From Tubulanus polymorphus (Eukaryota; Animalia; Nemertea), in NCBI RefSeq assembly GCF_964204645.1, contig NC_134025.1:5592871-5656870 (forward strand): a stretch of DNA of 64,000 nt. The letters run 5' to 3'. Shown here in pieces: positions 9,436 through 59,053 of the stretch; within the stretch, counting starts at the first letter, position 1, and every line of letters starts with the position of its first letter. The notes below the pieces were generated by a model. The model worked only from the letters and a program-made list of their open reading frames with translations. It was not told the DNA's origin and ran no database searches. The position numbers and the translations under genes were made by a program.

Positions 9436-9446
9436 GATTGGCCAAT
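9436..9446. promoter_or_regulatory. Palindromic double CCAAT box (GATTGGCCAAT) with a TATA-like ATATATTTAAG about 90 bp downstream
   Basis: Resembles an NF-Y site with TATA spacing, but no convincing downstream coding exon was found. Confidence 0.2.
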
Positions 9447-14590: not shown

Positions 14591-14940
<350 letters not shown>

Positions 14941-19300: not shown

Positions 19301-22300
19301 AATATTAGAAATCACTCCGTCATTCGATTGACTCTCACTATCAGCTGGTTAAGATTCTTGATTTCCTGGTTATCATTTCGCCTTCATTATTTTCTCCGAT
19401 CGGAAAATTGCTTTCGTAATAAATAACGCGGTGGTCGGTGAATGGCAGGATGATCTAGTGACATTGAGCGGTCAGTTTTCGTACTCGCTCATAACTCGCC
19501 GGCTGACCAAAATGGCATCAGGACCGCTCAGCTATAATTCTTATGATTGATTATCTGGTGAGATTATGTGTATGGATAGATTTGTATGCGCTACTGTAAT
19601 CACTGGCGATTAAAACAGCATGACCAAGCGCGAGAACGATCCGAGTATCCACGTAACCAACCGATCGCTGCGATTGATGATGATGGTCAATATTGCAAAG
19701 CAACCACCTTGTTTCAAAGAATCTTCTTTTTTAATTGAGGAAGACTTTCAAATTTTTTTTATCATCGAATGATGAATTGAATGCTCTTATATCAAAGTAA
19801 CATATCATTTTGGGTTATGCAATTATTGAACATTATTCAACGAATTACGCTGTTGGTCAGCGATGACGTTTTGCAAGCATCTCGACAATGCATCATATCT
19901 AATAACTCATAGTGTACTTAAGTTTCCTCAATGTTTGGTGAATACATTTTTATGCCGTGTTCAAAGCTTGAGCCGCAAATGGGAAATGAAAGCAAAAAGC
20001 CCTGCTTGCCTTTGGCATTATGCATCCATAATGCCTCTATTTTGGATTATAACGCTGTACGCGTAAATAATGTCTGACATAGCACATTTACGTCATCGTA
20101 AGCTGTTTATTCTTTCACAAAATGTGTATCGTGTTTCTTACGATAAGATCGAAATTAATCGTTTATTGCCTTCTTTTATTTTTCTTTGCAGAATGATACA
20201 GAATTCGCATATAATAAGGTAAGGCATAATACATTGAAAATCGTTGACAAGAACAAAACAAAATAATTTATATTTTACACTTCAACAACAAAATTGTATT
20301 ATATAATAGCATGTAATTCGTATGAATATGCTTTATACTACGTTCATATGAACAGTTGAGTTTTTCAGTCGCCCTATTATTGGCACGTGTAATTCGCATT
20401 GTATCGAAGATGGCTGTTTTTTAACGGTTAAGTTCTAAACAAAGTGCTTTCACGTGTAGTTTTTCTACGCCACTGATTGTGTTTTACCTGAAATATAGTT
20501 CAAGTGCAGTCGATTTACGTATGCTGGTCTAACCTACGGGATGTTTAATCGACGCTTGTGCAACACGCTTTTGTCTGACACTATAAAGAGCGCTAACAAT
20601 CAACTTCTGCAAATATTTTCATTGCAATCTTGTAAAAATATGTGATGTTATGATACACTACACGTGCGGCTTCATAAAATTCATAAAATTCTTTAAACCG
20701 CGATGTATATCGTCCCAGTTCTGCTGGTGATTTCGTGCTACGATTTTTTAAAAATCACTTGGTTTTAATTAGTTGTGGATTGTTTATAGAATTGAGCCAA
20801 GAGCCTTTTCTTTAAAGTGTAACCAGCCACTGAGTTTGAAATGCAGATAAAAATCGAAACTTGATAATTGGCGCTTGAAAAGGTTTTCGTTAAACTTGTG
20901 TGTGGAAGTAGTTTTTTTACTATAAGAAAAGTTGGTGTGGGAAGCTTGAAGCGCGTGCTTATAAAATGCGAAAGCATTTGATGTAAAACTGTGCCGACAG
21001 AGATCATGATAAAACCATTAACTCTAAAATGTGTAAAGCCTTTGAGGACTGATCAGATCTGACAACATTACCGCCAGCCTGGTCACAGACCCTGAATCGT
21101 GTCCCCCTTCAAGTGCTCTTACCTGTGTTTGCCTTCTTGTGTGCACTTATTGGGTTAAAAACCAGCAATTACGGGCGCCCTTGCTTCGCTTCTAGTTATG
21201 ATGTCACCTGCCTCGGGTATAGTTCATGTTGTCTTCGTTTGTAACGACTTCGGGTTCGAAATTAACGAGCTTTAAACTCCCCCAGCAAATAGTATACATG
21301 CCGCGGAAATCTTCGGATGAAAAAACAGCTATTCATTCTCAAACAATTCGAGTGAATATGAATCTTTCTGGTCCGAAAAATTAATTCAAGGGAAAAATAT
21401 TTGCCAATTATAAAGCAGTGACTCATTGCGTACACAAAATCAAATTATGAAATAGGACTTTCAATATAATACGAGCTTGAAAGAGACCCATCTGTGGGAT
21501 TCCTCACTGTGGCTCAGAAATTTTCTACGCTTTCATTATACGTACGAATTATATAGGATGATATATCATTCTATATCCGTGTTTATTTTTGTTGTTTAGA
21601 AATGTACATAGACAAACTTGAAATACATTACATCATTAATTTGTTCAGCGGTATACATCACTTTCTTGTAAGCGAGAAAAAAATGAAAAGATCATCATAA
21701 AAGCGGTTATGTTTGGTGGTTTGTTTTGTTTCTGCTGAAATCTGGCTGAACAGGCAAGGGTTTTATTCAGTGGTCAAAAGACGCGCTAATGAAGTTTCGC
21801 TAAGTATGAGTCAGGAAGTATTCATCAAGGGAGACTGCGGAGTTAAACCATCACAACGACGCTGGTGCTGGGCTCGTGATGATAGATTCGACCGCAATTC
21901 ACGCATTGTAACTTTGCGCGCGCGCGCGTTGCGTTCGTTTTCATTAACCTTTCTTTCAAGGCGCTCTACGAGTGGTACCTATTTGCAAATTCTACGCCAG
22001 TTGTCTTGATAAAATTACGACGCTGATTAGCCATGTCCTGCTTGTTGACAATCTTCCGAACTGCTATCAACCCACTTCATTTCCACTACTACCTACTATC
22101 AGTAATTAGCTGACCTTTCGTTGTATGCCCCCATACACAAAAGGTGAATAATGCAATTTTTAAGCCGTGATTTTTCTACCGCGTCCATGCTATTTCCCTC
22201 CCGTATATCATTTATTTTTATCAATCCAACTTGTACCGTTATCCAGAAAGTGATAATTGCTTACTTCCTTCGGCCAGAAATTACGAATAAGCTAAAAATT

Positions 22301-22379: not shown

Positions 22380-22518
22380 ATGGTCGAACAAACGAAATCC
22401 ATGGCAAAATACTTGATACTCAATTTGATTTTATGCAATGGCTTGATTTATTTTCAGGATCAGTACTGTGTCACTGGATGTAATGCCGCCTTAGATATAT
22501 ATACTGAGGATATTTTGG
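22380..22518 (+). CDS. ROS1: RTK exon 1: start codon and signal peptide ([19 protein letters not shown]...)
   Basis: ATG at 22380 or 22401, hydrophobic leader, donor GGgtgagt at 22519. Confidence 0.7.
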
Positions 22519-25500
22519 GTGAGTCTGAAACTCGATATCATCAAATACTTAAATCCTATCATTATCGTAGTAGTTAGAAATATATGTATTTGATTATACT
22601 CGAAGAGGCACTTCATGGATCTAACGATTTTTGTCGGTTCATCTCAAATAAATACATTTCTAATATGTAGCGTAACTTTTCATTTTCATTTTACAGAGGC
22701 TTTCGGAAAATTGCCACCGCCTGTGTTAGCTGCATCTAGTCTTACAAACACTTCATTAGGATTGCGATGGAGTGGTAAAATGCTGCATAATGTATCGTAT
22801 ATATTACAATGGAAATATACAAATATAAGCCCCAGTGAATGGCAGGTGTACGGGAGAATCAATTCGGGCCGCGTTACAGTCAAATATCTTCGCCCGTATA
22901 CCCGATATCAGGTAATAACATGCAACATATCCATTACGATTATTACTGCTTTAACAGATTTCCGTAAGATCATCTAGAAAATGCATATATATGATTGCTT
23001 TTGTTTCCTGCTGTGGATAATGATAGGCATAAGATGGATCAGGTTTTCGACTTGTTCGCGTTGAAAAGTTGGCATCGGTATCAGTGGAAAATGAGTTTTG
23101 CTAGTTACACCTCCGTGACAGGCGAGAAAATAGGATAACGTGGCTTGGATAACTTCTCCAGCCGCTGACTTACATATTTCAATCTGGAGTTGATTGATTC
23201 ACCAGGCGATCAACTGTTGTGATTGCAGTTGTATTATATCGTAAAATGCCACTGAATTTAGGGGACAGTACTTCGTTGCGATGAACGTTATTTGTTTGAA
23301 AATATTAATATATTGACATGACATGATGATTAAAAAATACGATGACACATGAATCGTACAAGATGGCTGGGAACCCACTCCCTTCATTAGATATTACTAC
23401 AAGCATGCGGCTTGGCATTCTGCTCAAGTGAATTGCAATGACCTGCAATTATTTTATGCAGCTACTGAACAGAAAAGTAATTTGTGACGCTGCCGGATAA
23501 TTACCAGTATCTGCGGGTTGTAAAATGTGTCCTGCGCTATAATTGTGCCAGTCGCGCGCGCATTGTCAGTTAGGAGTCAAACTCTCATCCTTTTTGAAGC
23601 ATTACGTAAAATGCGGGAAACCATCACCGGGGTTGTATTAGGTTTTATATGAGCGCATTAAAGTTAAATTTCCTCGCGTTGGTTTAAATTACATCGTTTA
23701 TAGTTAGAAATCGGGTGATTGGAGAATTTGGTTTCATTGCATTATGTAGGAAAATGTATAGATAAAATTCCTTTTCTTCTTAGTTCCGTATAGTAGCAAA
23801 AATTACCTCAAGACACATGGTAGAAACGCCAGCAACCATTCCAATCCTTACTAAGGCTAGTGGACGTAAGTTTCCAATGCGTTACCTTTCTGTGGACTTT
23901 GGCTATAAAGATAACGTGTCCATTTTCCATTTACAGAATGTATATTTCCATAATCTTTGTGTATTCATCGTGAAGAAAAACATCATGATATTCAGTCAAA
24001 TAAGGGAAGTTTTAGAATTTTATGACGTTGAATCCCTTTCGTTGTAGCACCATCAACTGAGCCCGTGATATTAAGTATAAGCAGTCCATCATCTAGTGTT
24101 ATTCATCTATCATGGAAACCTCCTCGTTTCACTAACGGTCCATTGACAGGATATCGACTTTGTCTACGTCCTCTCAATAACAGTCTCGATGGTGAACTAC
24201 TGAAAGAGGTGTCCGCATCATTGACAGCTTACACCTTTAGTAACCTGCAAAATAATACAGCATACGAGGTTTCATTATTGGCATGGAACTCCGAGGGGCG
24301 CGGACCTGATGCCAAAGCAGAGGTTGTTACCCAAAAAACTGCGGGTGAGCCATTCATTTCCGAATATATAATTATCGTTTTTTGAAAATAATTCTTCGTG
24401 GAAAGTTCGTTATAAGCAAGAAAATAACTTCTAAAGAATTGCATATCAAGTTCGCGAGTCGTCTCTATCTGCCGTAGATGGCAGCAGCTCCAGTACTGCC
24501 TCAATCAGTAATTATAACAGCCCTAAAATAATCTTTAGGTATCGTTGCTGTTCCATACATGATACTGGGTGCCGATAGCATGATACTGAAAAAAGATATT
24601 CGTGACGTTTTAACTTATTCCAAAACAATGTATGACGGGCCAGAAAATGTTCTGATATTTGGTAAGTATGAACGCATCGAGATGTGTGAAATAAAATATG
24701 ACACCATTCAAAAGTATGAAATAAAAAAATTTATTCTTTGCAAACGTTAAAGATATAAAAAAGAAAAGGCATGGGGTTAAGCACGTTTATATGCATAAGC
24801 ATGGGTCAAAAGGCCTTGTTCTTTTCTCTACGTCGTGTCCTTTGATTAAGCAAAAGGGGACATTTGTTTTATTTAAAAATCCCAAAGATCTTTTTAAGTA
24901 ATTTCAATTGGAATTGTCCCCTGTTGTTTCTCAGTTCTTCTAATGCATATATATATATATGATTATATTATATTCAAATTGAATATTTTGTATATGTATC
25001 TAAATGTCTCTGTCTTGTCTGTACTCGAGTCTAAATTGTATGTATCAATTACAACATTGGAATCAACTTTACACCACACGCAGCTTATATCATTTAGCTT
25101 TTCACATTACATCGATAAAAGTCTCTGTCTATCGTTCTTGTTATGTGATATTTAATTTTTCAATATATTCTTCTTCTGCGTACAAAAGGAAAAGTTATCG
25201 CCAACATCTATTGGACGATACAAATGAGAGGTAAAAATAAATAAAAATCCAAAACCCGGATGCGATGTTGTCACTATTACACGTGTGTCTGTGTGTATTT
25301 TTTGTATTGACACTTTTTACACTTGCTCAATCATACGTACACTTTTTACCAATGCACTTTTCTGAAAAACCAAGTACCAAATGCACAGAAAAATGAATTG
25401 CTTCTATAGGTTTAATCTTACAGAATCACAGTACACTCTTTTTGCACTTCATTTTGCTTACACACTTACACTAGCTTTCTGCACATGTGATTGTTTTTGA

Positions 25501-28500
25501 GTCATCACGAAAAATCTACTTGAATACTTTTCCAAATGTGCTGTCTCTCTCTTGATCGGACTTGATGTTTTTTTGTTTTTCTGAAATTCTTATGTTAATT
25601 GATTTAAATTAGAAATTAAATCAAATTGTTTCTGTGTAAAAGAAAATTTTTCAATATATTTGTCTGTTGTAAAATGTCCGTTACCTTTCCCCGTATTTTA
25701 TAATGATTATATTTCATTGAACGTAAGTAAACATTTAATTGTTTATTTATGCACAAATGAATCGTGCTGAAAATATTTATTCCCACGCCGGCCCTGCAGT
25801 TTTGATTTATCCCTTTTCGATCGCTTTCCTTTTTCATGAGATAAAAACATTCTAATATCTGATCATGTAAATGTGGTGGTGACTAACATTCAGAGATTTA
25901 TCAATCATTGTTACAGGTGTTGCCGTCCACACCGGAAAGAACATAATATTTTTCTCCGATAGCGCCGGTAATATTCATCGATTGTTTCTCGATCAGGAAA
26001 ACATGCAGCAAGTTGTTTATCATAGTTACAATGTGCCATCTGCCCTGAGCGTTGATTGGTTAAATGATCGGGTTTATATGGTAGAAGGACATACGGTAAA
26101 TCAAATTGAAATTTACGCTACATTTGCCATTTCTTCAATATCTTCCTCAGTGGACCCCCCCCCCCCCCCATATTCATCAACTACCTCATTGAACCAGGAA
26201 AAACGGAGCTATTTTGTTCATCATACTTTCATTTAAAATATGTGAATTCTATCATCGAATGAACAAGGTCTTCAAAATGCCTCAAAAAATTAGAATTGTT
26301 CAACAAAGTGATAATAAAATGATAGTAATAACATGTGTATTCCGTCGTATTGTATTGTATAGATAAAGCATTGCGACTTGGAATATCAAGAATGTCAGAA
26401 AGTGATTGTGAATTTGTATCCACCAGCTGATGATGTTAAAGCTGATCCATACAACGGGTACGTTTCACGATCAAGTAAAAATAGTAATATCCTCTCCACC
26501 AAACTGATTCATTATATTTCATGTGCTTTTTCAGTTATCTTTACTGGACACAAAATGGTAAACAGAAAGGTATTTATAGGACCGATTTGAAAAGGTTCTC
26601 TCGGACTGTGATCAGAAACCCATCCCTTTACCGGATTGTCGAAATTGATCGTCTATCGACACTATTCATTGACTATCAAAATTATCGGCTATATTTTCCG
26701 AATGGAACAAAAAACACGATCATGTCAACTTCTCTGGATGGTTCAGATTTGATCGACATTCGAACTAATGCTCAACGGAAGGATTTTGTTACTGTGAAAA
26801 GTCTTGTATATTATGACGGCAAATTCGTCTGGACGAACGGAGATTTTCTCGGAAAAGAAGAGTACGACCCTCTGAATAATATGTATCACCATACACAGGT
26901 TTACTTGAGGAGAGAAAAATATTTTTGTGGATTAACTTTGTATCATCCTTCCGCACAGCCAATTCCAGGTAAATCTTACTAGATATTCTAGATAAAAATA
27001 AAATTATAAAATTCTAGATATTCTCCAGTAGTGCATACTGGGGAATTGGTGGAAATTATCATCAATTCCAAAAATGCATGAATATATCAATTGATTTTCA
27101 GTGCCTGCAAATCCCCCGGTTGCCGTACAAGCATTGTTTACTGATAATTCATGTATAGTCAGCTGGCGAAAACCACCACTTCTAAAAGAGAAAGGTGAGT
27201 GAATATATCTTATATTTTCTAATAATTCACTGAAACCCGAATGATGAGGATAAGAGATGAGATATGTCTCAAGTAGAACTGGTTCTTTTCCTAGGAGGTT
27301 GTAAATGAGAGAAAGGTAGTTCACATAGTAGGGTCTTTCTCTCAAATACAGCTTCCCAGGAGGTGAGCTTTTAGCAGCATCATACAGATATGAGACGTCA
27401 GTCACACTATTCCGTTCTAGGTAAAGTATTTCACAAGTTGTGTCTGGTAGTTTGGCTCTATTTTCAAATGAAATGTTTACTGACATTTCATTTTATAACA
27501 GGAAAAGAAGCGTGGCAAAGATGGGTTTATGAGATTGCTCTGCGAGATGAGATGAATATAACGCGAACCGTCAACAGGGTACGACGAATGAGATATAGGA
27601 TTTATCATCTGAAACATAACACGAAATATCACATCAAAGTACGCGGATATACTGAAGGAGGATATGGACCGTGGTCAACAGAGTTTACTGGATTAACGCT
27701 TCCATACCGTAAGTTATTTCGGTTTGAAGATATTATAGTTTCCAACAACTCAAATGCGAGGAAACAAATCCATCGCGTTACACCTGGATATGTTAGTTTT
27801 TCATCATCTACATTTCATTTTAGAACCAGTCCACCCCCGCATACTGGCTGCCAATGAAGACAGTATTATTCAAGCTGATATTGATGGAAGCAACCAAATA
27901 CCTATTGTAAACTTCGAACGAGATGACGTCAAAGCAAAGATAACGGATATACACATGTATAAAGGAATGTATATATGGAGCATGGATAATGGACGAATTT
28001 ACAAATATCACAAAAATGACTCCCAATTAAGTGATGTACCTCATATTCACGACGCAACATCCATCGTGATCGATTGGTTATCTGGAAAGATCTACTGGTC
28101 TAACGTTAAACAGAGCATGGTAAATTACTGCAACTCTTTTAACGCCAGGTTTCTAATTGTAGCCTTTTCTATCATCATTAGCGTTTTCAATTTTAGATAT
28201 TTAGATCCGATTTATCTGGAAATTCAATTGAAACCGTATATCAGGCGTCTGCTCAGGACATGGCAATAGATTCGATGGCTGGGTATCTGTACTGGACAAC
28301 AACTCATACTGTGGAATGTTCAATACTGAATGGGGCTGGTCATTATACATATAAGACGTTACCTTTTCTGTCGGAAAAGTTCATGTATATCCTCGGTTTG
28401 ACACTGGATCTTCAGGATGAACAGCTTTACTGGATTGTGAAAAGTTACGAAGGAGCATTGCTTTACACTGCACCTATGAATAGCGGCAGAGCTGCAAAGA

Positions 28501-31500
28501 CAAACTCTCAAGTGAAGCAAATTGGAACTTTGAAAGCAGTTTCAAGGTATTTTTACAAGTGTCCAGTATCAGTGATTTACGTTCATGGATTTTATGATAC
28601 TGAATTTGACTACCGATATCTCGTATTTTTCAGGATGCCTATGCTGCATTATTATAGTAATCGATTGTTTTGGTTGAATGGAGAAGATGAGGCAGTGATA
28701 AGTGATGAAACAGGCAGCAATCCTGCAGCGATCAAATTCAGAAGTAAAACAGTCAGGACAATGACAGTTATTCATCCTTCTCTTCAGCCATACCCAGGTA
28801 CTGACGGAGCAGTTTTTGTACACATTAATAGATTCTGAAACTAATATTTCAGGAACTAAACAACTTAAACCTGTGATAAGGTAACTATCCAAATATTATG
28901 ATTGCAGAGGGTCATACCTGGAAGACAGTGACAGTGGTCCCTGGGGATATTCCAGCCACAAGTTTAGATGTAAAAGGCAACTGGTCAGATTTCAACATCA
29001 TTTGGCCATTGGAGAGTACTGTAAATCATGGGGATGTTTATTACGAGGTTTCGTTGCAATATGGCGTGGTGCAGAAAGTTATTGTACGTTCTAGTAGCCG
29101 ATATCTTCCGAAAATTCTTTTTAAAAATAGAAATTCGAATATAGTTTTCTTACATTTAGATAACCGACAAACCAGCCTATAATATAAAGAATCTAAAACC
29201 ATTTACAACGATAACGGTATCTCTGAGAGCCTATACACACTGGGGTTCATCAAAAACTACATCATCTAAACTTAAATCCCCAATGTCAGGTACGTCCAAT
29301 ACATTATGTAAATTTCTCTGGTGATTATTCTGATTATTCGCTATCTTAGATACACGAACTTAGGGATTGTCAATGCTTTTTTGCAGAACCAAGTATTCCA
29401 CTGAATCCAAGAGCCTTTGTCAGTTTCAATCAGAAATTCGCAAAATCTGAACCGACTGTTCACATTGAATTTCGATGGAATTGCCCGGCTGAATTGAATG
29501 GCGTTTTGAATGGTTTCCACGTATTTTATCAGAAAAGCGACGGAATTTGGGAACGCCAAATGCTCGGACCACATATAAACCACTTCCAGTTGAACAATGT
29601 GGATAAGAATTCAATTTACTCATTTCAAGTAGATGCCTGTTCACATGTTGGTTGTAGTAATAAAACCAAACCTGTGTCTCTCAATGCATCAGAACCAAGA
29701 CCAATACCACAGATCCTAGTAGCTCAAAACGACACTTTATTGAAGTTGGATGTTGATGAAAAAACAGGAACTCCAATTGTTCGTGCAAAACCTCTTTCTG
29801 TCGCGTATTTAGCAGCCGATCATTTGTATTTTTGGCTGAATGCGGAAAAACAAATCATGAAGTATGATGGCACGTCAAAAGTTGAGGTAACTCATCTCTT
29901 AACTTGGTCTACTTATGAAGACTTGCGATCTTCTTTTTAACACTTATAACCACTATGTTTTGCAGATTTACCACTTGGGAGATGAAGAAGCACACGGTCT
30001 TACTGTAGATTGGATTGGAAGAGCATTGTACTGGCTGGCACGTCAGCCTGATGGCACCACAACAATCATGTTACATTCTATTGATCGAAAGGATAAACAC
30101 GGATTGAAGTTGTTCAACCGAACTAATCCAGTTTCTGATCTTAACATTGATCCTTATCGCAGGTAAGCATCATACTCCATATTGTCGTCATGCAATTAAA
30201 GATTCAGTTTTGTTTACGGCCATTCACACTGACACATTTCTATCATAATTTCAGTACGCTTTACTGGACTGAACAATTTGACAATGACATCAAACTAATC
30301 ACATCATCTCTAAATGGTGAAAACGTTACGGAATTAATCAAACCAATAGTTCGTCAGAAGCGGGATGTAAACATGTGCAGCTGTAGCGCGCTAAAACTTG
30401 GGCCACAATTTACCGTGGATCACTCCAATGCTGAAGAGGTTTCTCTTTACGTAATTGACCGGGATACACATTACATCTATAAGACAGATTTGACTGCTTG
30501 CAACTGTAAGCTTATATTCAAAGGTGGAAGAACAGTTGATGAGCCAGGTTAGTCAACATGCGCTGTAAACTGTCGTTAGTTTTGTAAAATATTGGCAGAA
30601 TCTACATTTACAGGTGACTATCATTTATTTCAGGACTCCCTCCTGATGATATGACAGTTGATTCCAGTCGGCTATACTGGTCAAACCAGAAACTCGGGGT
30701 CGTAAACAGCGTCGACAAGAACACTGGAAAGAATTTCTTTCCAGAACGTCTCGATGAGGTCCTAGAGATTGTAGCTTTTGGTCCTCACCTGCAACCACTT
30801 CCCGGTAAGATTTATCGGCGGAAACCAGTGAACTTATTAATGCCTAATTGTGATGTAACATATTTTCTGAATTGTTTAGTCGAAGAAAATATTTTGGAAA
30901 ATTACTGAAAAGAAACATGAAAATCTGAATCAAACCGAATACATGATTCATTGTGAAATATTTCAAACTTGTTTGTAGATCTAAGTTGTTTGATGCCTGG
31001 TGATCAAACAGAAAAGGCTCAATATGCAGGAAGTACAAATACATCCATCAGTTTACTACTGCAACCACCTGATTATATTCCTAAATGTAACAAAATCTCC
31101 CGATCACCAACAAAATACAGAGTTCATTATCGAAGAGTGGATGAAAATGAAACGTTGTCGAAATGTGCTGTCAGTGTTGGATGCAGTGTTCAGGTATTGA
31201 AGATTCCTCTCCACGGTTTTTTGTTAGTATTGAAGATGATAGTTTACTGAAAAGTTGCAATTCATTTTCAGGAGGATTTTAAAACTAACATCGTTGTCGG
31301 TGGTTTGGAGCCGTATTCAAAATACGTATTTCAAGTGTCAAATGAGAACTTTTACAGTGCTGGATTACCTCCGGTGTTCGGTCCACCCGTTGAATACCAC
31401 ACCAAGGAAGGAAGTGCGTATTACCTACACTCTAGCATCTGCTGTCATTTTTACTTACTTAAGTATTCAAAAACACTTGGTAATGTATCGTTATCTTCTC

Positions 31501-34500
31501 TTTTTTCTATCAAGTTCCTTCTCAGCCGCTGAATGTCCAAGCAAGAGTATGCACACCAGACATGATTGGCATCAGTTGGGACCCGCCTAGCAGATTAAAC
31601 GGTGATGAAAGTGATATTCTTTATTACATTCAATGGCAAATGAAGGGGAAACTTGTGACGATGACCACTAATGAACAATACAGTAGACCCCTGAAACGGC
31701 CAAACGCTTGCCTGCGACATAATTTCAAAATGGGAATGTTACTTCGAAAAATGGCCGACAATACAAGATACAGTTTCTGGGTAGGTAAAACGTAAATTGA
31801 TTTCAATTTGCTCGATCAATTTTCCAGGGAAAACATAAGATTTCATATACTTATATTAATGAACTATGATCGTTCTTCATAGGTTTTGGCTCGAAATCGA
31901 AAAATGGACAAGATACACCATAGCACAAGTAGAGAGGTGACTGTGAAAACTTACGAATATCCAGGCCCATTACATTTGCTACATCGAGGTCGTCGTCAAA
32001 TGACCATGCAGTGGACATCGCCGAGTGATGGCAGTGCTATCCGACATATGATCGTTGCTAGAGAGGTGAGGATTACGTGAATATGCGAAATAATCTTGAT
32101 GATTTTGTTTCTTCATAAGAATATGCGGGTACCGTTTGTTAACCGAATATATATCGAATTGATTATCTTTAGAAAAACCGTCAGAGGTCCAGAGGCCGAC
32201 AAGGATATAAGTTAGATATGACAACGCCAGACACAGTGTACAACATAACTGTGCATGATCTGAAACCGGATACTCTTTACATATTCATAGTTCGGGTAGT
32301 TCTCTTGTCAAAGCGATCGTTCATCTGGCCATTGGATGATCGATACATGTTCAGGACATTACGTAAGTAGTAAGCACATTCATAGGCACCGTCATTTTAT
32401 CTTAACAACTTTCTGAAATTTAACGTTTCTTTGACTCATCAGCTGATGCCCCAGAACGGCCACATCCACCATCTATAAAATCAATTGGTGACAATAAATT
32501 TGAAATTCTTTGGGATGAGCCTGAAGATGGAGGTCGGGTTATTCAGAGATATGTTTTACAATACATGTAAGTTTGTAAAGAAATGCTGTGCATAAGTCAT
32601 TATATTATCAATGTTACATGCATTGCAATGAGAGTTTTCATCAATTTTAGGCATTTGACCGGGGATAATTTGGACTGGGTTACAGTATATAATGGCACAG
32701 AACGCAAATGGCTCGTTGACGGTTTAGCGCCCAATGAAGAGTTTACGTTCCACGTCGCAGCTGTCAATGAAATCGGTTGGAGTGAATACAGCATCAATAG
32801 TTCCGTTTTCTATTTGGATCAGGGTAATTTGTTGTTGAATAGATAAGCGTGTGTGAAAATTGTTTGACAATCTGTGCAAGGGTTATCGTCTACACGTGAA
32901 TTTTGAATATCTATGAAAATCGTTTTATTTTTAGCTGTTAGTGCTGGGATGGACCCCTTGACGGTTATTTTAGCTGGTTCATTTACTGCATTGATGATAC
33001 TAATCATAATTATTGCATCAGTGCTCGTCTCATGTAAGTAGTTCTTCACGAATTCCAGAGATCTTTAACTTCTATATTTCGGAAAGACTATATGATAATA
33101 CGATTGTATCAGAATGAAGAATATCGTTTTATATAAAAATGTTCTAATGACAATTAATTATCATCATTATCATCTCATAACCATTTCATATTCGAGACAT
33201 TTCATTAAAGCTAATAGCTTTATAGAATAGTGATACCTATTCTATATTCGTATCCGTTCTGTACATATATTGTGTCATTTTGTAAGTTGATGTACAAAGT
33301 AATGTATCATAGTTCCTTTACACGTTCTTGTTGCTTGTACATATATTAGTTAGTCCCGTATTCTGATCAAATTTAGAATTGGACATAACTGCATATGCAG
33401 TTAACATGTACTCAACACACTGTTTAGTAGTTTCCTTCGTACTGTTGATTGTTAAAACCCAAATATCAGAACTTTCATCAAATTTGTTGCATTTGACGTA
33501 CATATCAATGAAACTTTTTGCTATTTGGGTTTCATGTTATTTGTTTATCATTTTCACCTGCATTCATATAATCTCATGATCACATAAGTCATTTTGTCCA
33601 TTACTATCTTAATTATAGGTGATTGTATTTCAGTCTTCCGTAAGAGAAATAGAATGAAGAAAATACCCGTTAGTTTCATAGTTACGTCTAACGGCACGGA
33701 CGTTGAATTAGCGAATCTACGCGAATTACCGGCAATATCAGTACAGCAAACCAATACACTGTATGCCATTGGGTAATTTTGAACCTTTTTGCTTTTGTTA
33801 GAAGAATGTATTTTTCATCACGCAGGTCATGTGATTTGGTAAATCGCTTAGATTTCCAATTTTTCAATTCGAAAAGCGATGAAGAATACAACGTCTGCCT
33901 CATTACGTTTTTCTTTCGTTGATTTCGTTGTTGCATAAAGCAAATTATTTTCTCCGTGTTTTACACCATATTTGGCGATCTTAATCCATCCGCTTATTTA
34001 TTCTTTATTTTGTTTATGTCGTGGATAATCTCGAGTGAAAAAAAACTTAGTAGACTAGAGTTATCTATCATTATTTGCTGTGTGTTTCATATTTAATGCA
34101 ATTTGAAAAACGCCTGATAATCATTCGTTCATTATATTTCATTGTTAGTATTGTCCCGTCTGAGGAAGAGATTGCAAAATTGCCTCATTTCCGCCGCGAT
34201 CAACTCACGTTGACGAAATTCCTCGGAAGTGGTGCATTCGGAGAAGTGTTTGAAGGCTGTGCTACGAATATTTTGGGTGATTCTACGGGCGAAACTAAAG
34301 TAGCAGTGAAGGTTAGTTGAATTATCTATTACCATTACGAGATATATCATAAGATGTGCGTATACGACTTCATTACTCCTGTCTCATTTCAGACGTTACG
34401 GAAGGGAGCATCAGCTGTAGAAAAAGACGAATTTCTAAAAGAAGCTCTTTTGATGAGCAATTTTAAACATGAGCACATATTGCGACTATTGGGTGTGTGT

Positions 34501-37500
34501 CTCGAAAATGACCCGCAGTTTATAATATTGGAACTGATGCAAGGTGGTGACCTACTGTCATTCCTGCGAGTGTCTCGTCCAACATTGGTGAGTATTTCAC
34601 GGGATCTGTCTAGAGTATGTTCACAGTTCAGTTCCTCCATTTTCACTATAAGTATTTCTCATATTTTGCAGAATTGTGCTCCTCTTCTGACATTGCCAGA
34701 TCTCATTAGTATATCAGTAGATGTCGCACGGGGCTGTGAATATTTAGAGGAAATGCATTTTGTTCATAGGTGAGATTTAGTTTATTTTCTTGAGTTATAC
34801 AGATTCATAGCTTTATTTAGGAGGATTAAAGCGCAGATCTGGATTTAATGAAAATAAGGAATTACCGTACACGTTACTTATACTTTATTAACTTTCTATT
34901 TTGAATAGGGATTTGGCAGCAAGAAACTGTTTAGTAGCACCAGCAGCTGGTGGATCGCGTCTGTTGGTGAAAATTGGAGATTTTGGCTTAGCTCGTGATA
35001 TTTATAAAAATGATTATTATCGTAAAGAAGGTGAAGGATTACTACCAGTGCGATGGATGTCTCCGGAATCATTGATGGATGGAGTATTTACTACACAATC
35101 AGATGTCTGGTGTGTAGATTGTTTTTTTTTTGAAGGGATGTGTTTTAATGGTGTTAAACTGTATTACGAATATCTATCTTTTCTTTTAAGGGCATTTGGT
35201 GTATTGGTTTGGGAAGTAATGACTCTAGGACAACAGCCCTATCCAGCACGAACGAATATAGAAGTTTTGCATTTTGTTCGAAATGGTGGTCGTTTAGATA
35301 AACCAGAAGGCTGCCCATCAGACCTGTAAGTTTTATATTTACATGTTCATGCACATGTATTCTAACATGACCACAGATTTCTTATATGCCATTATGATAC
35401 TTTAGATATTCGCTGATGCTGCAGTGTTGGTGTTACTGTCCCGATGATCGGCCGTCATTCTGTTATCTCCGCCAACAGTTACAACAGCTCAGTGATAAAG
35501 CAGCAGAATTTTCAGAGGCATTGCTAATTGGTAGGCTTATGACAGGTAAGACGTGCCTGCATGCATTGAGCACGTTGTTTGAGCCTGGTTTTTAAACGTT
35601 AAAAAAAGTTGTTTAAGGTTCGTTGATGTCTATGTGGCCACGCATGTGTATGTTCGAAAACTCCAGTTCCAAATCACCCGATCTCACTCCGGAGGAAAAT
35701 ACCTCCACAATTGAAAATGGACAATCAATAGCGTTTGATTGAGGGCTTTTAAATGTATAAAATGAATGATTTGTTTATAGAGTGTTAATAATATTTCTTA
35801 GATGTTCATTATGAGATTTTTGTAAAGGATTGTTTTGTTTGGATACTATTTCGCATGTGCTTAGATAGAATGATGAATGTTGACTATTGCATGATTTATT
35901 TGAATACTCTGTTATCAATTCCAAAAATACACTGTTCACTGTGGACTCTATGATCCTTTCTGGTGATACGTTTTATGCCATCGGTACTTTGTATCTGCAA
36001 AACCGTCCTTATGCATCCTATATGTTGTATCTTCGGTCTATATCGTCATAAACTGGTGAAGATCCTTCCGATGTTTCCTTCCTTTCGTTTGAACCAGGGA
36101 TTCTCGTTTCCCTTTAAGTTTCCCTACATTTCCGTTGTCAGGATGATATTCAATGTTGTATCTTCGAAGGAATGCTTATCATTATTCAATGCATCATGAC
36201 TTGGTGGCTACTGTCTAGCATCTGTATGTTGTGAACGCTAAGCGATTTCTTTTCGGATAATTTGGCCTTATTTCTTCTTTAGAGATTTAAATATTTCTAA
36301 TATTTATGACATAGTCTCAAAAATATCTCAAGCCAACTGTTTCGATTCGTTTTCATCGAGGAAAGGATTTTCGAATTACTTATGAGAAAGTTTCAATCGT
36401 GGCAAATTTTTCTATGAAAAAAATCAAATTAATAACGGGACTGAATGCATAGAATTTATTTTATCTGTTGCTCAGGTGGATTTGATAATCTTGCATTTGA
36501 TACGCTGGAGGCCCAGTCTAGCCGTAAAAAGAAATATCCCAATAAATTATGCGTCAACCTTTCACCCAGAAGCAAAAAGAAATTAGGTGAGAATGGACTT
36601 TTGAAATTTGCCGCCAAGTGAGAAGAGCTCTAATCAGAAATCATCTTGAATATTACAAATATTCAACGACTTTAGGTTGTTGCTAAAACTGGTGTAAACT
36701 GGACCTATTTTATGTAATCATTGGTGTTTACCAATGGATTACTTCGCTATGACTGATCTTCACCAGTTTATAGAAAATCATAGACTCTGCAAGATACACC
36801 ATGATAGCACAAATGAAATTTGTTTAGTATAGTTTCGCCCTATTATAAATTGGAATTGAAGTACTAACTTTTCGTTGATTTCAGCTGTCCATATTCCTGA
36901 TTCTATGAAGATTCTTACCAGACGTAAGCATAAATTACGAACGTTGTTCGGTTGTTATGATGATAGTGTTGTACCACAAAGTCCCGTGGGAGATGAGGTG
37001 AGCAAATTAAAGACACAAAAGCTGTGTTTTTCTTACCAAGAGATTTTTCCTTACCTAAGAAATATTGCATTTTACAGTATTTGACCGCACGACATGGACG
37101 TATGAAACGAGCGCTCTCATTTGACAGTAATCAGTTCAATATGGCAAAAGCGCAAGAAGAGGCTGAATGCATACGATTAGATGCGTTGGGGTATTTGAGA
37201 CCGAATCAAGGCGAGATGCCAAAATATCTGGAACTAATCGCAGATCCGACGGCAGCGCCTGCGCAAACTGGTTTGGATAACGCGACGGACAGTGATAACG
37301 ATGATAGCGTTAGTACGCGGATGGGCCATGAGATGACGCCGCCATTATCCGCTGATTCTCTAACACGTTCGCGTAAATCAGCTGAACGAGTAGTAGTCGT
37401 CGATCAGGAGATTATTCCACGCGAATTACAAGGCTCCGAAAGCGTCATTTCGCATCCGCTGAGCTCAAGCGACAGTCAAACGACGATTGGTCCATCGCCC

Positions 37501-38199
37501 GTCAATCGACAGGATTCTGTTCGCAAGAAACATCCTCCGACACGATTGAACGGACTTATCGCCAACATCGACCCTACGCAGACGAAGAGTAACAAAGATA
37601 TAAAAAGCGAGAATGATGAAACTTCCGACTCGATGTGTCTGACGCAGCTTGAAGATATCAGCAGCCCAGAAATCATTCACCACAAACGTAAGCGTAGTTA
37701 CACACCCTTACCGACAAGTGATCTGGACTCCTCTATCAGTAGCGATGACGCGGAGGATGAAGAGGAGGATGATGAATACGATCCATTATCTGGTAGTACG
37801 CAAAGCTGCGGCCAAAGTGCGGGCCGCAAAATCACTGGGACCATTAACTATGCACAATTGGCTCTAAATTCCGAGAGTGACAGCGAATGTGATACGCTCG
37901 GGCGTAGACGGTCCCAGAAACGATCGCGGCACAGTCGGTCGAGTCGACACGCGACAAATGGAAATACTCCAAGACTATCGCGGCCGCAAAGACTTGATTA
38001 TAAGAATAATCGCAGACTAAATGAAGTCGATTACGAATGCACCGGGTTACACGTCGGTGGTAATAGTTACACTCGCATGCCGGTCATGGGAACACGTATC
38101 AGTCCGGGCCATACACCGCGACGTAAAGGTGACTACATGAACATAAGACATGGCGAGGAAAGTGAACTGAAACCAGACGTTCCATGCGTACGAATTTGA
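22380..38199 (+). CDS. ROS1: ROS1/sevenless-family receptor tyrosine kinase, complete gene (36 coding exons, about 2617 aa)
   Basis: Spliced translation gives signal peptide, FN3 repeats, YWTD beta-propeller repeats (YLYWT, LYWLA, LYWTE, LYWSN), TM helix [33 protein letters not shown], then kinase motifs [85 protein letters not shown]. The pattern is strongly ROS1/sevenless-like. All 35 junctions are GT-AG with consistent phase, and total CDS 7854 nt is divisible by 3. Confidence 0.9.
22697..22911 (+). CDS. ROS1: RTK exon 2 (FN3 domain 1)
   Basis: Acceptor ttttacag, encodes [22 protein letters not shown]...YLRPYTRYQ, donor CAGgtaata. Anchored to ORF 22615-22977. Confidence 0.8.
23784..23865 (+). 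CDS. ROS1: RTK exon 3 (FN3-1 F/G strands, FRIVAKIT...)
   Basis: Joins to give YTRYQFRIVA, the FN3 Y.F.V.A motif. Donor GGACgtaagt. Confidence 0.75.
24048..24344 (+). CDS. ROS1: RTK exon 4 (FN3 domain 2)
   Basis: [37 protein letters not shown]...[21 protein letters not shown], donor Ggtgagc. Confidence 0.8.
24539..24661 (+). CDS. ROS1: RTK exon 5
   Basis: Acceptor tctttag, donor TTTGgtaagt, phase-consistent with exons 4 and 6. Confidence 0.7.
25917..26095 (+). CDS. ROS1: RTK exon 6 (beta-propeller 1)
   Basis: [25 protein letters not shown]...[13 protein letters not shown], donor ACGgtaaat. Confidence 0.75.
26154..26169. repeat. Poly(C) homopolymer C16 in RTK intron 6
   Basis: ggaCCCCCCCCCCCCCCCCatattc. 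Confidence 0.9.
26363..26457 (+). CDS. ROS1: RTK exon 7
   Basis: [32 protein letters not shown] matches the ROS1 CDLENC...SYNGY region. Confidence 0.75.
26535..26968 (+). CDS. ROS1: RTK exon 8 (YWTD repeats)
   Basis: [18 protein letters not shown]...[10 protein letters not shown], anchored to ORF 26521-26982, donor CAGgtaaat. Confidence 0.8.
27102..27194 (+). CDS. ROS1: RTK exon 9 (FN3 start)
   Basis: [31 protein letters not shown], acceptor ttgattttcag, donor AAAGgtgagt. Confidence 0.7.
27502..27708 (+). CDS. ROS1: RTK exon 10 (FN3)
   Basis: [18 protein letters not shown]...[27 protein letters not shown]. Confidence 0.8.
27824..28119 (+). CDS. ROS1: RTK exon 11 (beta-propeller 2)
   Basis: [22 protein letters not shown]...[17 protein letters not shown]. 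Confidence 0.8.
28197..28546 (+). CDS. ROS1: RTK exon 12 (YWTD repeats)
   Basis: ...[22 protein letters not shown]...[19 protein letters not shown]... Confidence 0.8.
28634..28797 (+). CDS. ROS1: RTK exon 13 (propeller 2 end)
   Basis: [24 protein letters not shown]...[11 protein letters not shown]. Confidence 0.8.
28908..29083 (+). CDS. ROS1: RTK exon 14 (FN3)
   Basis: [38 protein letters not shown]... Confidence 0.75.
29160..29289 (+). CDS. ROS1: RTK exon 15 (FN3 end)
   Basis: [43 protein letters not shown]. Confidence 0.75.
29387..29886 (+). CDS. ROS1: RTK exon 16 (FN3 + propeller 3 start)
   Basis: ...[25 protein letters not shown]...[23 protein letters not shown], anchored to ORF 29494-29940. 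Confidence 0.8.
29966..30162 (+). CDS. ROS1: RTK exon 17 (YWTD)
   Basis: [43 protein letters not shown]... Confidence 0.8.
30255..30547 (+). CDS. ROS1: RTK exon 18 (YWTD)
   Basis: [28 protein letters not shown]...CSCSALKL... Confidence 0.8.
30634..30804 (+). CDS. ROS1: RTK exon 19 (YWTD)
   Basis: [40 protein letters not shown]...GPHLQPLP. Confidence 0.8.
30979..31193 (+). CDS. ROS1: RTK exon 20 (FN3)
   Basis: [31 protein letters not shown]...[14 protein letters not shown]... Confidence 0.75.
31272..31413 (+). CDS. ROS1: RTK exon 21 (FN3)
   Basis: [47 protein letters not shown]. Confidence 0.75.
31515..31780 (+). CDS. ROS1: RTK exon 22 (FN3)
   Basis: [45 protein letters not shown]...RYSFW. 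Confidence 0.75.
31883..32065 (+). CDS. ROS1: RTK exon 23 (FN3)
   Basis: [36 protein letters not shown]...[22 protein letters not shown]. Confidence 0.75.
32173..32362 (+). CDS. ROS1: RTK exon 24 (FN3)
   Basis: ...[43 protein letters not shown]. Confidence 0.7.
32443..32566 (+). CDS. ROS1: RTK exon 25 (FN3 start)
   Basis: [41 protein letters not shown]. Confidence 0.7.
32651..32823 (+). CDS. ROS1: RTK exon 26 (FN3, membrane-proximal)
   Basis: [58 protein letters not shown]. Confidence 0.8.
32935..33033 (+). CDS. ROS1: RTK exon 27 (transmembrane helix)
   Basis: [33 protein letters not shown] is a 23+ residue hydrophobic run. Acceptor tttttag, donor TCATgtaagt. Confidence 0.75.
33619..33772 (+). 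CDS. ROS1: RTK exon 28 (juxtamembrane; alternative acceptor at 33634)
   Basis: ...[46 protein letters not shown]. Both AGs, at 33618 and 33633, are in frame. Confidence 0.65.
34149..34311 (+). CDS. ROS1: RTK exon 29 (kinase N-lobe: P-loop and VAVK lysine)
   Basis: [55 protein letters not shown]. Confidence 0.85.
34393..34587 (+). CDS. ROS1: RTK exon 30 (kinase: alphaC, hinge)
   Basis: [59 protein letters not shown]... Confidence 0.85.
34672..34769 (+). CDS. ROS1: RTK exon 31 (kinase)
   Basis: [32 protein letters not shown]. Confidence 0.85.
34909..35109 (+). CDS. ROS1: RTK exon 32 (catalytic loop HRDLAARN, DFG, activation loop)
   Basis: [67 protein letters not shown]. Confidence 0.9.
35191..35325 (+). 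CDS. ROS1: RTK exon 33 (kinase C-lobe)
   Basis: [46 protein letters not shown]. Confidence 0.85.
35406..35545 (+). CDS. ROS1: RTK exon 34 (kinase end)
   Basis: [28 protein letters not shown]..., donor ACAGgtaaga. Confidence 0.75.
36885..36997 (+). CDS. ROS1: RTK exon 35 (C-terminal tail)
   Basis: Phase-consistent junction with exon 34 (G + CT). Acceptor tttcag, donor GAGgtgagc. Confidence 0.6.
37078..38199 (+). CDS. ROS1: RTK exon 36 (long acidic/Ser-rich C-terminal tail, stop TGA 38197-38199)
   Basis: 374-codon open frame in phase with exon 35. Low complexity with Tyr motifs (YMNI, DEYDPL, YAQL, YECTG). Confidence 0.6.
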   Translation, partial: YLTARHGRMKRALSFDSNQFNMAKAQEEAECIRLDALGYLRPNQGEMPKYLELIADPTAAPAQTGLDNATDSDNDDSVSTRMGHEMTPPLSADSLTRSRKSAERVVVVDQEIIPRELQGSESVISHPLSSSDSQTTIGPSPVNRQDSVRKKHPPTRLNGLIANIDPTQTKSNKDIKSENDETSDSMCLTQLEDISSPEIIHHKRKRSYTPLPTSDLDSSISSDDAEDEEEDDEYDPLSGSTQSCGQSAGRKITGTINYAQLALNSESDSECDTLGRRRSQKRSRHSRSSRHATNGNTPRLSRPQRLDYKNNRRLNEVDYECTGLHVGGNSYTRMPVMGTRISPGHTPRRKGDYMNIRHGEESELKPDVPCVRI

Positions 38200-43451: not shown

Positions 43452-43497
43452 CACAGAACTCGTATAGACAACATAGAAAATAGCCGAGCGTTTCAAG

Positions 43498-44196
43498 ATG
43501 GCGAGTAATTCTGACAAGCGAACGTTTCGATTTCCTGGATTGAAGACTCTACGAAAGATTAAGTCGTCTTCCAAGATGAATAAAAACAGAAAAGCGGTGA
43601 AATTCGAAAGACAGAAAATCCAACCGCAGCCGTCACCAGTGTCGTGCAGTTCGGATAGCGGCAACGCGTCTATGTTTGAAAGCAGCTCCAATTCTTCGAT
43701 AGAATATTCGGTACGGGACATCGAACATGAACTGCGAAACAAAAAGTTCGACAGAATCCGCGAGAAGTTGAAGAATCTCAAGAGTAAAGACCAAGCTATG
43801 GTGCATAAAATCTTCGAATTACGGCAGAAGAATTCGCCAGTCCGCCATCACCAAAAAGTGGCACTGCCTGTAGTGAGTCCAAAGCATGTGGCAGTGCCTG
43901 TAGTGAGTCCAAAGCGTCTGTATTTGACGGTGCAGCGTCCGCGACCAATTTGTTCTTCGACGCCGATGCATCGACCGATCAGTTGCCAGATGAACGAACA
44001 GCGAAAACCCGTAAACGCAAATGCGGCTGTACTAGGCTCTCCGATCACTGGAATGATATCTAAATTTGGAATTCGAAGACCGGCGAAGCAGCCAGCGGCC
44101 AGTCGTCCGACATCGGTACCAGTTGCCAAACGAGGAGTCTACTACCGACCAGTAACGTATTTCGATGAACATGGACTAAAATGTACAAGGTGTTGA
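43498..44196 (+). CDS. Hypothetical intronless gene, 232-aa basic Ser/Pro-rich protein
   Basis: 699-nt ORF with ATG in good context. TATA box and Inr-like TCAGTT 50-90 bp upstream, ATTAAA signal about 115 bp downstream of the stop. No recognisable domain. Internal 30-bp tandem duplication (VALPVVSPKH/VAVPVVSPKR). Confidence 0.5.
   Translation: MASNSDKRTFRFPGLKTLRKIKSSSKMNKNRKAVKFERQKIQPQPSPVSCSSDSGNASMFESSSNSSIEYSVRDIEHELRNKKFDRIREKLKNLKSKDQAMVHKIFELRQKNSPVRHHQKVALPVVSPKHVAVPVVSPKRLYLTVQRPRPICSSTPMHRPISCQMNEQRKPVNANAAVLGSPITGMISKFGIRRPAKQPAASRPTSVPVAKRGVYYRPVTYFDEHGLKCTRC
43861..43920 (+). repeat. 30-bp tandem duplication (x2) inside the intronless ORF
   Basis: gcactgcctgtagtgagtccaaagcatgtg / gcagtgcctgtagtgagtccaaagcgtctg. 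Confidence 0.85.
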
Positions 44197-44308
44197 AAGA
44201 TATGGGACGTCTCTCATCAGGGATATTAATTATGCGGTGCTATGTACAAAGAACTTTCACAAACTGTGCATTATATTAATGTGACGATATGAAAATTGTA
44301 AATATTTT

Positions 44309-44314
44309 ATTAAA
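44309..44314 (+). terminator. Putative polyadenylation signal ATTAAA for the intronless gene
   Basis: About 115 bp after stop codon 44194-44196, in an AT-rich 3' flank. Confidence 0.3.
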
Positions 44315-44583
44315 AGAAAATATAACAAAATATACACAAGATATGAAAATGAATTAAATTCTTTCGTAATTATTGTATCTCTTCTGGCGTATATATCTAG
44401 GCTTTTGGTGTTGCCGAGGTTTTATATTCTGATTTAATTACCGGCTTGTACTGGTATACAAATATTGTATCGGAGGAGCCCGCGGGATGAACCAAGTTTT
44501 TTTTCTATATTATGTTCTAGAATGAAATGCATGGTCATATCACCTTGACTGGTAACATAGTAACGGTTGTGATGTGAAAATAA

Positions 44584-46143: not shown

Positions 46144-46277
46144 GTAAGCGATCATCAAGTCATGGACATTTCATTTAGAATATCTCTTATGTAATAATAG
46201 ATCCACAACCATTTTCATTATCAACATGGACCCATGCTAGACCATATACTTGTCAACCAGGAAAAAATTTTTTGTAG

Positions 46278-46577
46278 GAGGTAGCCACTCAAAGCAGTTT
46301 CATGAAAGTCAACGAATTTCTGCATAAGATTGACGACGACCTAAAACATCAGGAGACGGACGATCGATTCACGGCGAACAGATCGGGCTTATCACCAGCT
46401 CAAACTCAGAACGTATTCAGAAATACACAAAATCGTTATCAACAAGATATACAACGACATTCAACTGGACAGCTATCTAAAGAAATGGAAGCTCTGAAAA
46501 ACTGCCGATATCTGCGCATTTATGTCCCGAAGGCTGAACGAAACAAAAAAGTAGGAAGCTTCGACGCTATACTTTGA
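46278..46577 (+). CDS. Hypothetical gene exon 2 (terminal)
   Basis: Acceptor ttttgtag, open frame EVATQSSFMKVNEFLHKIDDDL... to TGA at 46575-46577. Confidence 0.4.
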   Translation, partial: EVATQSSFMKVNEFLHKIDDDLKHQETDDRFTANRSGLSPAQTQNVFRNTQNRYQQDIQRHSTGQLSKEMEALKNCRYLRIYVPKAERNKKVGSFDAIL

Positions 46578-47268: not shown

Positions 47269-57265
<9,997 letters not shown>

Positions 57266-58995: not shown

Positions 58996-59004
58996 TCTCA
59001 ATAA

Positions 59005-59053
59005 AATGGAATTGGAATAAGGAATAAGGAACAAGTAATGAACTTAACTGGGG
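59005..59053. repeat. Right terminal inverted repeat
   Basis: See left TIR. Confidence 0.65.

Follow-up and report, generated by a model that had tools for sequence, protein, structure and literature searches.

Receptors of the ROS1/Sevenless family have an ectodomain in which FN3 domains and YWTD propellers follow one another in the order FN1-FN2-A-FN3-B-FN4-FN5-C-FN6-9 (PMC13044245, PMC11743138), and a CATCH domain, which structurally staples the ROS1/Sev head, is the module that locks the head in solved structures (PMC13044245, PMC11743138). Ligands with complex structures have been described together with the family architecture: NELL2 in mammals, NEL/NICOL in chicken, and BOSS in the fly (PMC13044245, PMC13100127, PMC11743138). 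In Sevenless, the last FN3 domain also holds a poly-arginine (furin) processing site (PMC11743138). Our literature search returned nothing specific on ROS1 in lophotrochozoans. Here we analysed a 64,000-nt stretch of the genome of the nemertean Tubulanus polymorphus (the window; contig NC_134025.1, positions 5,592,871 to 5,656,870 of the forward strand), which is AT-rich (~37% GC) and carries a gene of this family on its + strand at 22.4-38.2 kb. An earlier reading of the same DNA, made from the sequence alone (the original prediction), had described a complete ROS1/sevenless gene at 22380-38199 and had called its branch orphan, a term that the ligands named above make outdated. We consider it highly likely that the locus is the ROS1/Sevenless orthologue of T. 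polymorphus, a type I receptor tyrosine kinase (RTK), and that its 5' end extends upstream of 22380.

Stop-free stretches of the + strand between 22.4 and 38.2 kb showed FN3, YWTD, and tyrosine-kinase sequence. When a rough concatenation of the stop-free pieces was used as a query, the top match in the protein collection was XP_074649999.1, a T. polymorphus protein of 2634 residues annotated as "proto-oncogene tyrosine-protein kinase ROS-like" and the one Tubulanus protein among the database matches. The next match was the Lineus longissimus orthologue, followed by hemichordate, tick, mosquito, and bird ROS/sevenless proteins, with insulin-receptor-like, Eph, and LRP4 proteins far lower in the same search. 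Our gene model is the exact spliced alignment of XP_074649999.1 (P0001) to the window, and all residue numbers are those of P0001.

Residues 12-2634 mapped at 100% identity to 37 exons between 22458 and 38199, and each of the 36 introns between them was GT-AG and kept the frame, in agreement with the phase-consistent junctions of the original prediction. The stop codon, TGA at 38197-38199, is likewise the one it had given. Its exon and codon counts were too low: it listed 36 exons, whereas 37 lie within the span and the whole gene has no fewer than 39, and its 2617 codons compare with the 2649 that the ATG at 22380 plus the 37 exons would give, a shortfall in the hand assembly of roughly one exon. 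The introns are indeed short (median 104.5 nt, with 22 of the 36 at 76-115 nt), but the stated range of 80-110 nt strictly holds for only 15, and four introns of the gene body measure 600-1255 nt. Most domain borders coincide with phase-1 introns. Two further exons upstream bring the total to a minimum of 39 coding exons, and the gene as we traced it covers no less than 26.5 kb (11707-38199), 5' introns of 8.4 kb and 2.2 kb included. Joined together, these 39 exons give a reading frame of 7,962 nt without interruption (2,653 codons and the stop). Thus, the description of a compact gene of 15.8 kb fits the 3' body, whereas completeness does not hold, as conserved exons lie up to 10.7 kb further upstream. 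The gene is genuine, ordinary, and already named correctly in RefSeq.

Pfam searches with the full protein returned eight fn3 stretches and PK_Tyr_Ser-Thr (1.5e-93), and searches with the stop-free stretches returned fn3 and PK_Tyr_Ser-Thr at E 2e-95. Because Ldl_recept_b matched only below threshold, the propellers were tested separately. YWTD-A and YWTD-B matched the YWTD propellers of LRP4, LRP6, and LDLR. YWTD-C was homologous to both A and B from end to end by hhalign (98-98.8% probability, E 2e-13 to 4e-17), whereas a control comparison of YWTD-C with FN3-6/7 gave 0.1% probability. An AlphaFold2 model of FN3-5, YWTD-C, and FN3-6 reached a predicted local distance difference test score (pLDDT) of 88.4 and a predicted template modelling score (pTM) of 0.84. 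In Foldseek, this model matched the 'leg' of chicken ROS1 with a template modelling score (TM-score) of 0.83 and a root-mean-square deviation of 3.7 Å, compared with target-normalised TM-scores of 0.69-0.75 against single LRP6 or LDLR propellers. Combined, the Pfam, PDB alignment, propeller, hhalign, and AlphaFold2/Foldseek results supported nine FN3 domains and three YWTD propellers, arranged as CATCH, FN3-1, FN3-2, YWTD-A, FN3-3, YWTD-B, FN3-4, FN3-5, YWTD-C, and FN3-6 to FN3-9. A single transmembrane helix lies between FN3-9 and the kinase and is followed by RKRNRMKK. The predicted order of FN3 repeats and three propellers, transmembrane helix, and kinase was therefore borne out.

The claim of intact catalytic motifs also stood, with the G-loop, VAVK, HRDLAARN, DFG, and SPE all present together with a ROS1-type YxxxYY activation loop, and from these motifs the kinase is predicted to be catalytically competent. 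The C-tail of ~470 residues contains 12 tyrosines.

The 5' end of the gene differs from that proposed. The start codon and first 26 codons of the original prediction (22380-22457, +) are intronic, forming the 3' end of the 2.2-kb intron with its polypyrimidine tract, and the ATG sits 78 nt 5' of a consensus acceptor, ttgatttattttcag|GAT (22457/22458), which that model reads through. Upstream, we traced two coding exons on the + strand, both of phase 0. The exon at 11707-11769 (63 nt; translation CQNGCTVWQGAVLDKSCQAMC) has the acceptor ttgtctttcag|TGC and the donor TGT|gtaagt and encodes CATCH CxxxC motifs 3 and 4; tblastn recovered it with Lineus at 59% identity (E 1.6e-4) and with the hemichordate at E 0.004. 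When the extended head was searched against the PDB, this exon aligned from query residue 1 to the CATCH domain of mouse ROS1 (CQNGCTVW vs CIHGCQFW; 9pwq/9pvp, a ROS1 ectodomain judged to be mouse from the construct in the paper). The exon at 20191-20217 (27 nt; acceptor tttgcag|AAT, donor AAG|gtaagg) encodes NDTEFAYNK, a Cys-free CATCH loop that is present in XP_074649999.1 and has the counterpart NNTAFAYNK in Lineus, and tblastn with Lineus recovered both upstream exons. The P0001 residues ahead of DQYCVTGC are MCNDTEFAYNK, in which 'MC' is the end of exon 11707-11769. CxxxC motifs 3-5 of Tubulanus are thus found on exons 11707-11769 and 22458-22518, with the loop exon between them, and the whole aligns to the mouse CATCH domain.

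We searched window positions 1-11706 for the remainder of the N-terminus using tblastn with five orthologue N-termini, a hidden Markov model built from 15 orthologue N-termini and run on every stop-free segment, regular expressions that combined the Cys motifs with donor constraints, a scan for Met plus a hydrophobic run, a three-frame reading of 9.9-11.7 kb, and CpG profiling. Only chance-level matches were obtained. Four candidate 5' exons were rejected: 10361-10402 comes after a stop and its cysteines are wrongly spaced, the candidate at 7163 lacks an acceptor, 5835-5879 ('LCNGVSFSYSRRAFC') shows no similarity over a wider stretch, and 'EKICFERC' at 16345 is out of order. CpG islands were useless for locating promoters since CpG is not depleted, the observed/expected ratio being at least 1 in most 400-nt windows of the profiled stretch 1-22,400. 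Judged by comparison with Lineus, ~55 codons, those of the signal peptide and the first CATCH hairpin, appear still to be missing from the model; the one or more exons that encode them probably lie upstream of the window or are too short and diverged for detection. The claim that every domain is present accordingly holds for the FN3, YWTD, transmembrane, and kinase parts, but only about one third of CATCH lies inside the 22380-38199 span, and the signal peptide was not found.

It could be argued that the gene is nevertheless complete in 22380-38199, with the hydrophobic stretch after the ATG at 22380 serving as signal peptide. The ATG is in frame and contiguous with the exon starting at 22458, the 26 added residues do include a hydrophobic run, and the window yielded no other signal peptide. 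However, that signal-peptide-like run is the translation of the T-rich tract preceding a consensus acceptor, and the 26 residues show no similarity to any orthologue. The residues before DQYCVTGC in Lineus, ticks, mosquitoes, the hemichordate, and vertebrates, of the pattern …C..GC..W…SC…CN.T…, instead match exons 11707-11769 and 20191-20217, and a start at 22380 would delete four of the five conserved CATCH CxxxC motifs. This start is thus very improbable. Another view would take the RefSeq model at face value, with its start at Met 11764, no signal peptide, and a shortened CATCH domain, as XP_074649999.1 is annotated and as the failure to find a further upstream exon in the window would allow. 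Here too the alignment argues otherwise: the RefSeq initiator is an internal ATG whose Met aligns with an internal residue of the orthologues (Lineus 'QDMC', mouse 'LKC'), and this ATG is preceded in its exon by 19 conserved coding codons, which start at a canonical acceptor and include no in-frame ATG. Moreover, a type I receptor with an 1800-residue ectodomain needs a signal peptide, and the orthologues with complete N-termini all have one, along with five CxxxC motifs, two more than in Tubulanus. We regard a complete RefSeq model as highly improbable and conclude that XP_074649999.1 is 5'-truncated, as is the model of the original prediction, and that both starts are artefacts of this truncation.

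Assignment of the locus to another RTK family, such as ALK/LTK or insulin receptor, or its being a decayed pseudogene, is hardly credible. The ALK and InsR/IGF1R kinases were the next-best matches and belong to the nearest other subfamilies, they likewise have the YxxxYY activation loop, and InsR has membrane-proximal FN3 domains, as does the worm protein. Yet the worm kinase scored 431 bits against human ROS1 compared with 321 against ALK, 302 against IGF1R, and 287 against InsR, so that ROS1 leads ALK by ~110 bits and IGF1R by ~130 bits (110-145 bits over the group), and its identity to an insect InsR-like kinase was 43%. The ectodomain architectures of these receptors are unrelated to that of the worm protein, in which no Pfam matches to MAM, LDLa, glycine-rich, Recep_L, or furin-like domains were found and whose ectodomain is collinear with ROS1 over ~1800 residues. 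The full-length protein matched chicken ROS1 (9oyz_B) with 1097 bits in one collinear stretch (residues 2-2199) and the 9pwq/9pvp ROS1 ectodomain at E 4e-178. All top database matches were named ROS or sevenless, confirming the family membership claimed earlier; best matches to ALK/LTK or insulin receptor, the outcome that the original prediction had said would count against it, were not what we obtained. Decay of the gene is contradicted by the uninterrupted frame, by the GT-AG boundaries of all 36 introns in the span, and by 83% kinase identity to Lineus.

Several points do weigh against our preferred reading of a ROS1/Sevenless orthologue that extends upstream. Exon connectivity follows the RefSeq model, orthologue conservation, and splice signals; what may be said of ligand, signalling, and expression comes only from distant orthologues; the signal peptide and CxxxC motifs 1 and 2 were not found by the tblastn, profile, motif, and signal-peptide searches of 1-11706; and an alternative promoter could conceivably use the ATG at 22380.

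The original prediction had also held that the kinase C-lobe resembles sevenless more than vertebrate ROS1 and hence is of a protostome type, a conclusion that our comparisons did not support. Identity of the kinase was 83% to Lineus, 73.6% to the hemichordate, 71% to ticks, 69-70% to culicine mosquitoes, 66-67% to birds, 65-66% to Anopheles 'sevenless', and 64% to alligator, so that the closest kinase outside nemerteans is the hemichordate ROS. In the ectodomain, identity was 50% to Lineus, 33% to the hemichordate, 32% to ticks, and 26-28% to both mosquitoes and sauropsids. A neighbour-joining tree grouped the nemerteans with the hemichordate, though such a phenetic tree does not test phylogeny. 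In comparisons with solved structures, the ectodomain head scored 420-433 bits to mouse, chicken, and human ROS1 and 182-185 bits to Drosophila Sevenless, and the leg model gave TM-scores of 0.71-0.72 with 16% identity to Sevenless compared with 0.83 and 24% to chicken ROS1.

The C-lobe motifs that had been cited are present in the worm, but they do not discriminate Sevenless from ROS1. WMSPESL and TLGQQPY, which culicine mosquito orthologues have in common with the worm, also occur in hemichordate ROS, and AFGVL and TLGQQPY occur in bird ROS1; LYSLML had an exact match in none of the compared orthologues. Since these motifs occur in deuterostomes, they are, to judge from the sequences compared, shared ancestral bilaterian states and not protostome markers. 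Similarly, the worm has HRDLAARN, as do deuterostomes and ticks, whereas insects have HRDLACRN. T. polymorphus is a protostome, which makes its gene a protostome orthologue in a trivial sense, but its sequence suggests a slowly evolving, ancestral-looking ROS rather than a 'sevenless-type' receptor. By the same comparisons, the protein would not be counted as a Drosophila-type Sevenless, being neither closer to insect Sev nor equipped with a poly-arginine site in its last FN3 domain.

In vertebrate ROS1 (human, mouse, and chicken), for which ectodomain and kinase structures are solved (9pwq, 9pvp, 9oyz-9ozi, 10ft/9dz4, 3zbf, and 7z5w), the domain order from CATCH to kinase is the same as in the worm. 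The bird and alligator kinases are 64-67% identical to that of the worm, with HRDLAARN and DFG unchanged, and the vertebrate 'leg' gave TM-scores of 0.82-0.84 to the worm FN3-5/YWTD-C/FN3-6 model. On the other hand, ectodomain identity is only about 26-28%, and the first Cys motifs of the vertebrate CATCH domain are spaced differently. The vertebrate C-tail is probably much shorter than the ~470 residues of the worm. Drosophila Sevenless (dROS1) and the dipteran proteins have the orthologous architecture of CATCH, nine FN3 domains, and three YWTD propellers, but Drosophila Sevenless has its poly-arginine furin site in the last FN3 domain, and vertebrate ROS1, like the worm, lacks a poly-Arg cleavage site in FN3-9. 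In the worm, no R-x-[KR]-R or poly-arginine furin site was found in this domain (residues 1698-1796), and R-x-[KR]-R sites of the ectodomain are at residues 563, 1244, and 1608. The closest relatives of the worm gene are the ROS-like genes of L. longissimus and the hemichordate Glandiceps talaboti. In the models of both, a signal peptide and the full set of five CxxxC motifs are present; in Tubulanus, the first two motifs were found neither in the model nor in the window.

By analogy with the solved structures of vertebrate ROS1 and of Drosophila Sevenless, signalling would begin when a ligand outside the cell engages the N-terminal head, and the receptors would then cluster, with or without release of a CATCH-mediated bent-over state. 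The kinases would trans-phosphorylate the activation-loop tyrosines of YxxxYY, and the 12 tail tyrosines would recruit adaptors. The open reading frame, the domain order, and the intact catalytic residues were observed here directly, and the fold of one propeller segment as a predicted model. Given a head that resembles vertebrate ROS1 much more closely than fly Sevenless, the nemertean receptor may preserve the ancestral ligand mode, in which a secreted NEL-like ligand would bind YWTD-A and FN3-1/2, rather than BOSS binding FN3-3; we hold this to be possible but rather unlikely. If it were true, signalling through BOSS would count as a novelty of insects, and spiralians would offer a tractable system for the ancestral ROS1 ligand. 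We dropped a mapping of the mouse ROS1 NELL2-contact residues onto the worm protein because an alignment at ~28% identity is too uncertain for residue-level claims.

The nemertean protein resembles ROS1 more than Drosophila Sevenless does, which bears on how ROS1 ligands changed in evolution. The practical value is mostly quality control, together with an intact spiralian ROS1/Sevenless orthologue that can be used in RTK phylogenies. One useful by-product is that the public model needs repair at its 5' end: users of XP_074649999.1, or of the coding sequence of the original prediction, obtain a protein without a signal peptide and part of CATCH.

The 37 exons of the span are all on the + strand and were all placed by the spliced alignment; further evidence is given in brackets. 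The part of CATCH held by P0001 (residues 1-32) closes with exon 22458-22518, which encodes the last CATCH helix and CxxxC motif 5 (orthologue alignment). FN3-1 (residues 33-130) is encoded by 22697-22911 (fn3 match) and ends on 23784-23865, and FN3-2 (residues 131-230) by 24048-24344 (fn3 E 1.4e-14). YWTD-A (residues 231-506) starts on 24539-24661, continues on 25917-26095 and 26363-26457 (LRP4 propeller matches for both), and runs up to HPSAQPIP on 26535-26968 (propeller matches). FN3-3 (residues 507-607) occupies 27102-27194 (Pfam) and 27502-27708 (fn3 E 3.9e-10), and YWTD-B (residues 608-876) occupies 27824-28119, 28197-28546, and, up to HPSLQPYP, 28634-28797 (propeller matches for all three). 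FN3-4 (residues 877-978) follows on 28908-29083 and 29160-29289. The exon at 29387-29886 encodes FN3-5 (residues 979-1082) and the start of YWTD-C (Pfam; AlphaFold2/Foldseek); the rest of YWTD-C (residues 1083-1365 as a whole) lies on 29966-30162 (hhalign; AlphaFold2/Foldseek), on 30255-30547, with a conserved RQKR...CSC loop, and, up to GPHLQPLP, on 30634-30804 (hhalign).

FN3-6 to FN3-9 together make up residues 1366-1796. FN3-6 is encoded by 30979-31193 and 31272-31413 (AlphaFold2/Foldseek for both), FN3-7 by 31515-31780, FN3-7 and FN3-8 by 31883-32065, FN3-8 by 32173-32362, and FN3-9 by 32443-32566 and 32651-32823 (Pfam for these five). The transmembrane helix (residues about 1805-1829) is on 32935-33033, the stop-transfer and juxtamembrane region on 33634-33772, and the juxtamembrane region with the kinase N-lobe on 34149-34311 (Pfam; kinase comparison). 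The kinase (residues 1896-2165) proceeds with its alpha-C helix and hinge on 34393-34587, then 34672-34769 and 34909-35109, which includes WMSPESL (kinase comparison for all three), followed by the C-lobe on 35191-35325 and the end of the kinase, LYSLMLQCW, on 35406-35545 (motif comparison for both). The C-tail (residues 2166-2634) is encoded by 36476-36586, with the motif GFDNLAFD (Lineus comparison), by 36885-36997, and by the last exon, 37078-38199, which is Ser/Arg/Asp-rich, contains eight tyrosines, and ends with the stop codon.

Three features of these exons were noted on comparison with the orthologues. The first is the basic RQKR-type motif in the YWTD-C loop (exon 30255-30547, P0001 residues about 1240-1255), which fits R-x-K/R-R; the pattern of a basic cluster followed by CxC is kept in Lineus (RRAKRA…CNC), the hemichordate (RRRRDVSGDCNC), and ticks (RKRSDHYSCSC). 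AlphaFold2 had low confidence at this loop (pLDDT <50, model residues 266-270), which may be a site of processing or have a structural role. Just past the kinase, in exon 36476-36586, G-F-D-N-L-A-F-D is matched by GFDNLAFD in Lineus, GLDNLAFD in the hemichordate, and GIDNLGY in ticks, and may be a docking motif in invertebrate ROS tails. Lastly, Lineus isoform X2 carries a 22-residue insert in blade 1 of YWTD-A, exactly at the exon junction that in Tubulanus is occupied by the 1255-nt intron 24662-25916, the largest in the gene body; the insert is absent from Tubulanus, and no Lineus-like 22-residue micro-exon was found in this intron.

At the 5' side, the 8.4-kb intron contains a microsatellite of ~345 nt (14593-14937) composed of (TA)n interrupted by (CATA/TATG)n, where GC falls to 12%. 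Near the window edge, a 100-codon stop-free stretch on the + strand (351-650) includes strongly hydrophobic segments and is followed at its end by a good donor, CAG|gtaaaa. This stretch may be an exon from a gene for a membrane protein, and there is no evidence for its belonging to the ROS gene. Scans of the whole window found no Rfam families or tRNAs. Just beyond the 3' end of the ROS gene, at 43477-46574 (+), long open reading frames rich in Ser, Arg, and Lys (239, 536, and 99 codons) had no Pfam match and probably represent a disordered-protein gene; a 30-nt repeat of 1.9 copies is found at 43858-43915. On the minus strand, a POLQ-like (DNA polymerase theta) gene at ~47.2-57.4 kb has Helicase_C, POLQ_helical (E 7e-34), and DNA_pol_A matches and includes one very long exon of 722 codons (50710-52875), and a CAF1B/HIR1-type WD40 beta-propeller gene lies at ~59.7-62.8 kb (PF24105, E 2e-29 and 6e-26). 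Between these two genes, at 58528-59005, are two adjoining tandem arrays, one with a period of 91 in 3.1 copies and the other with a period of 79 in 2.8 copies.

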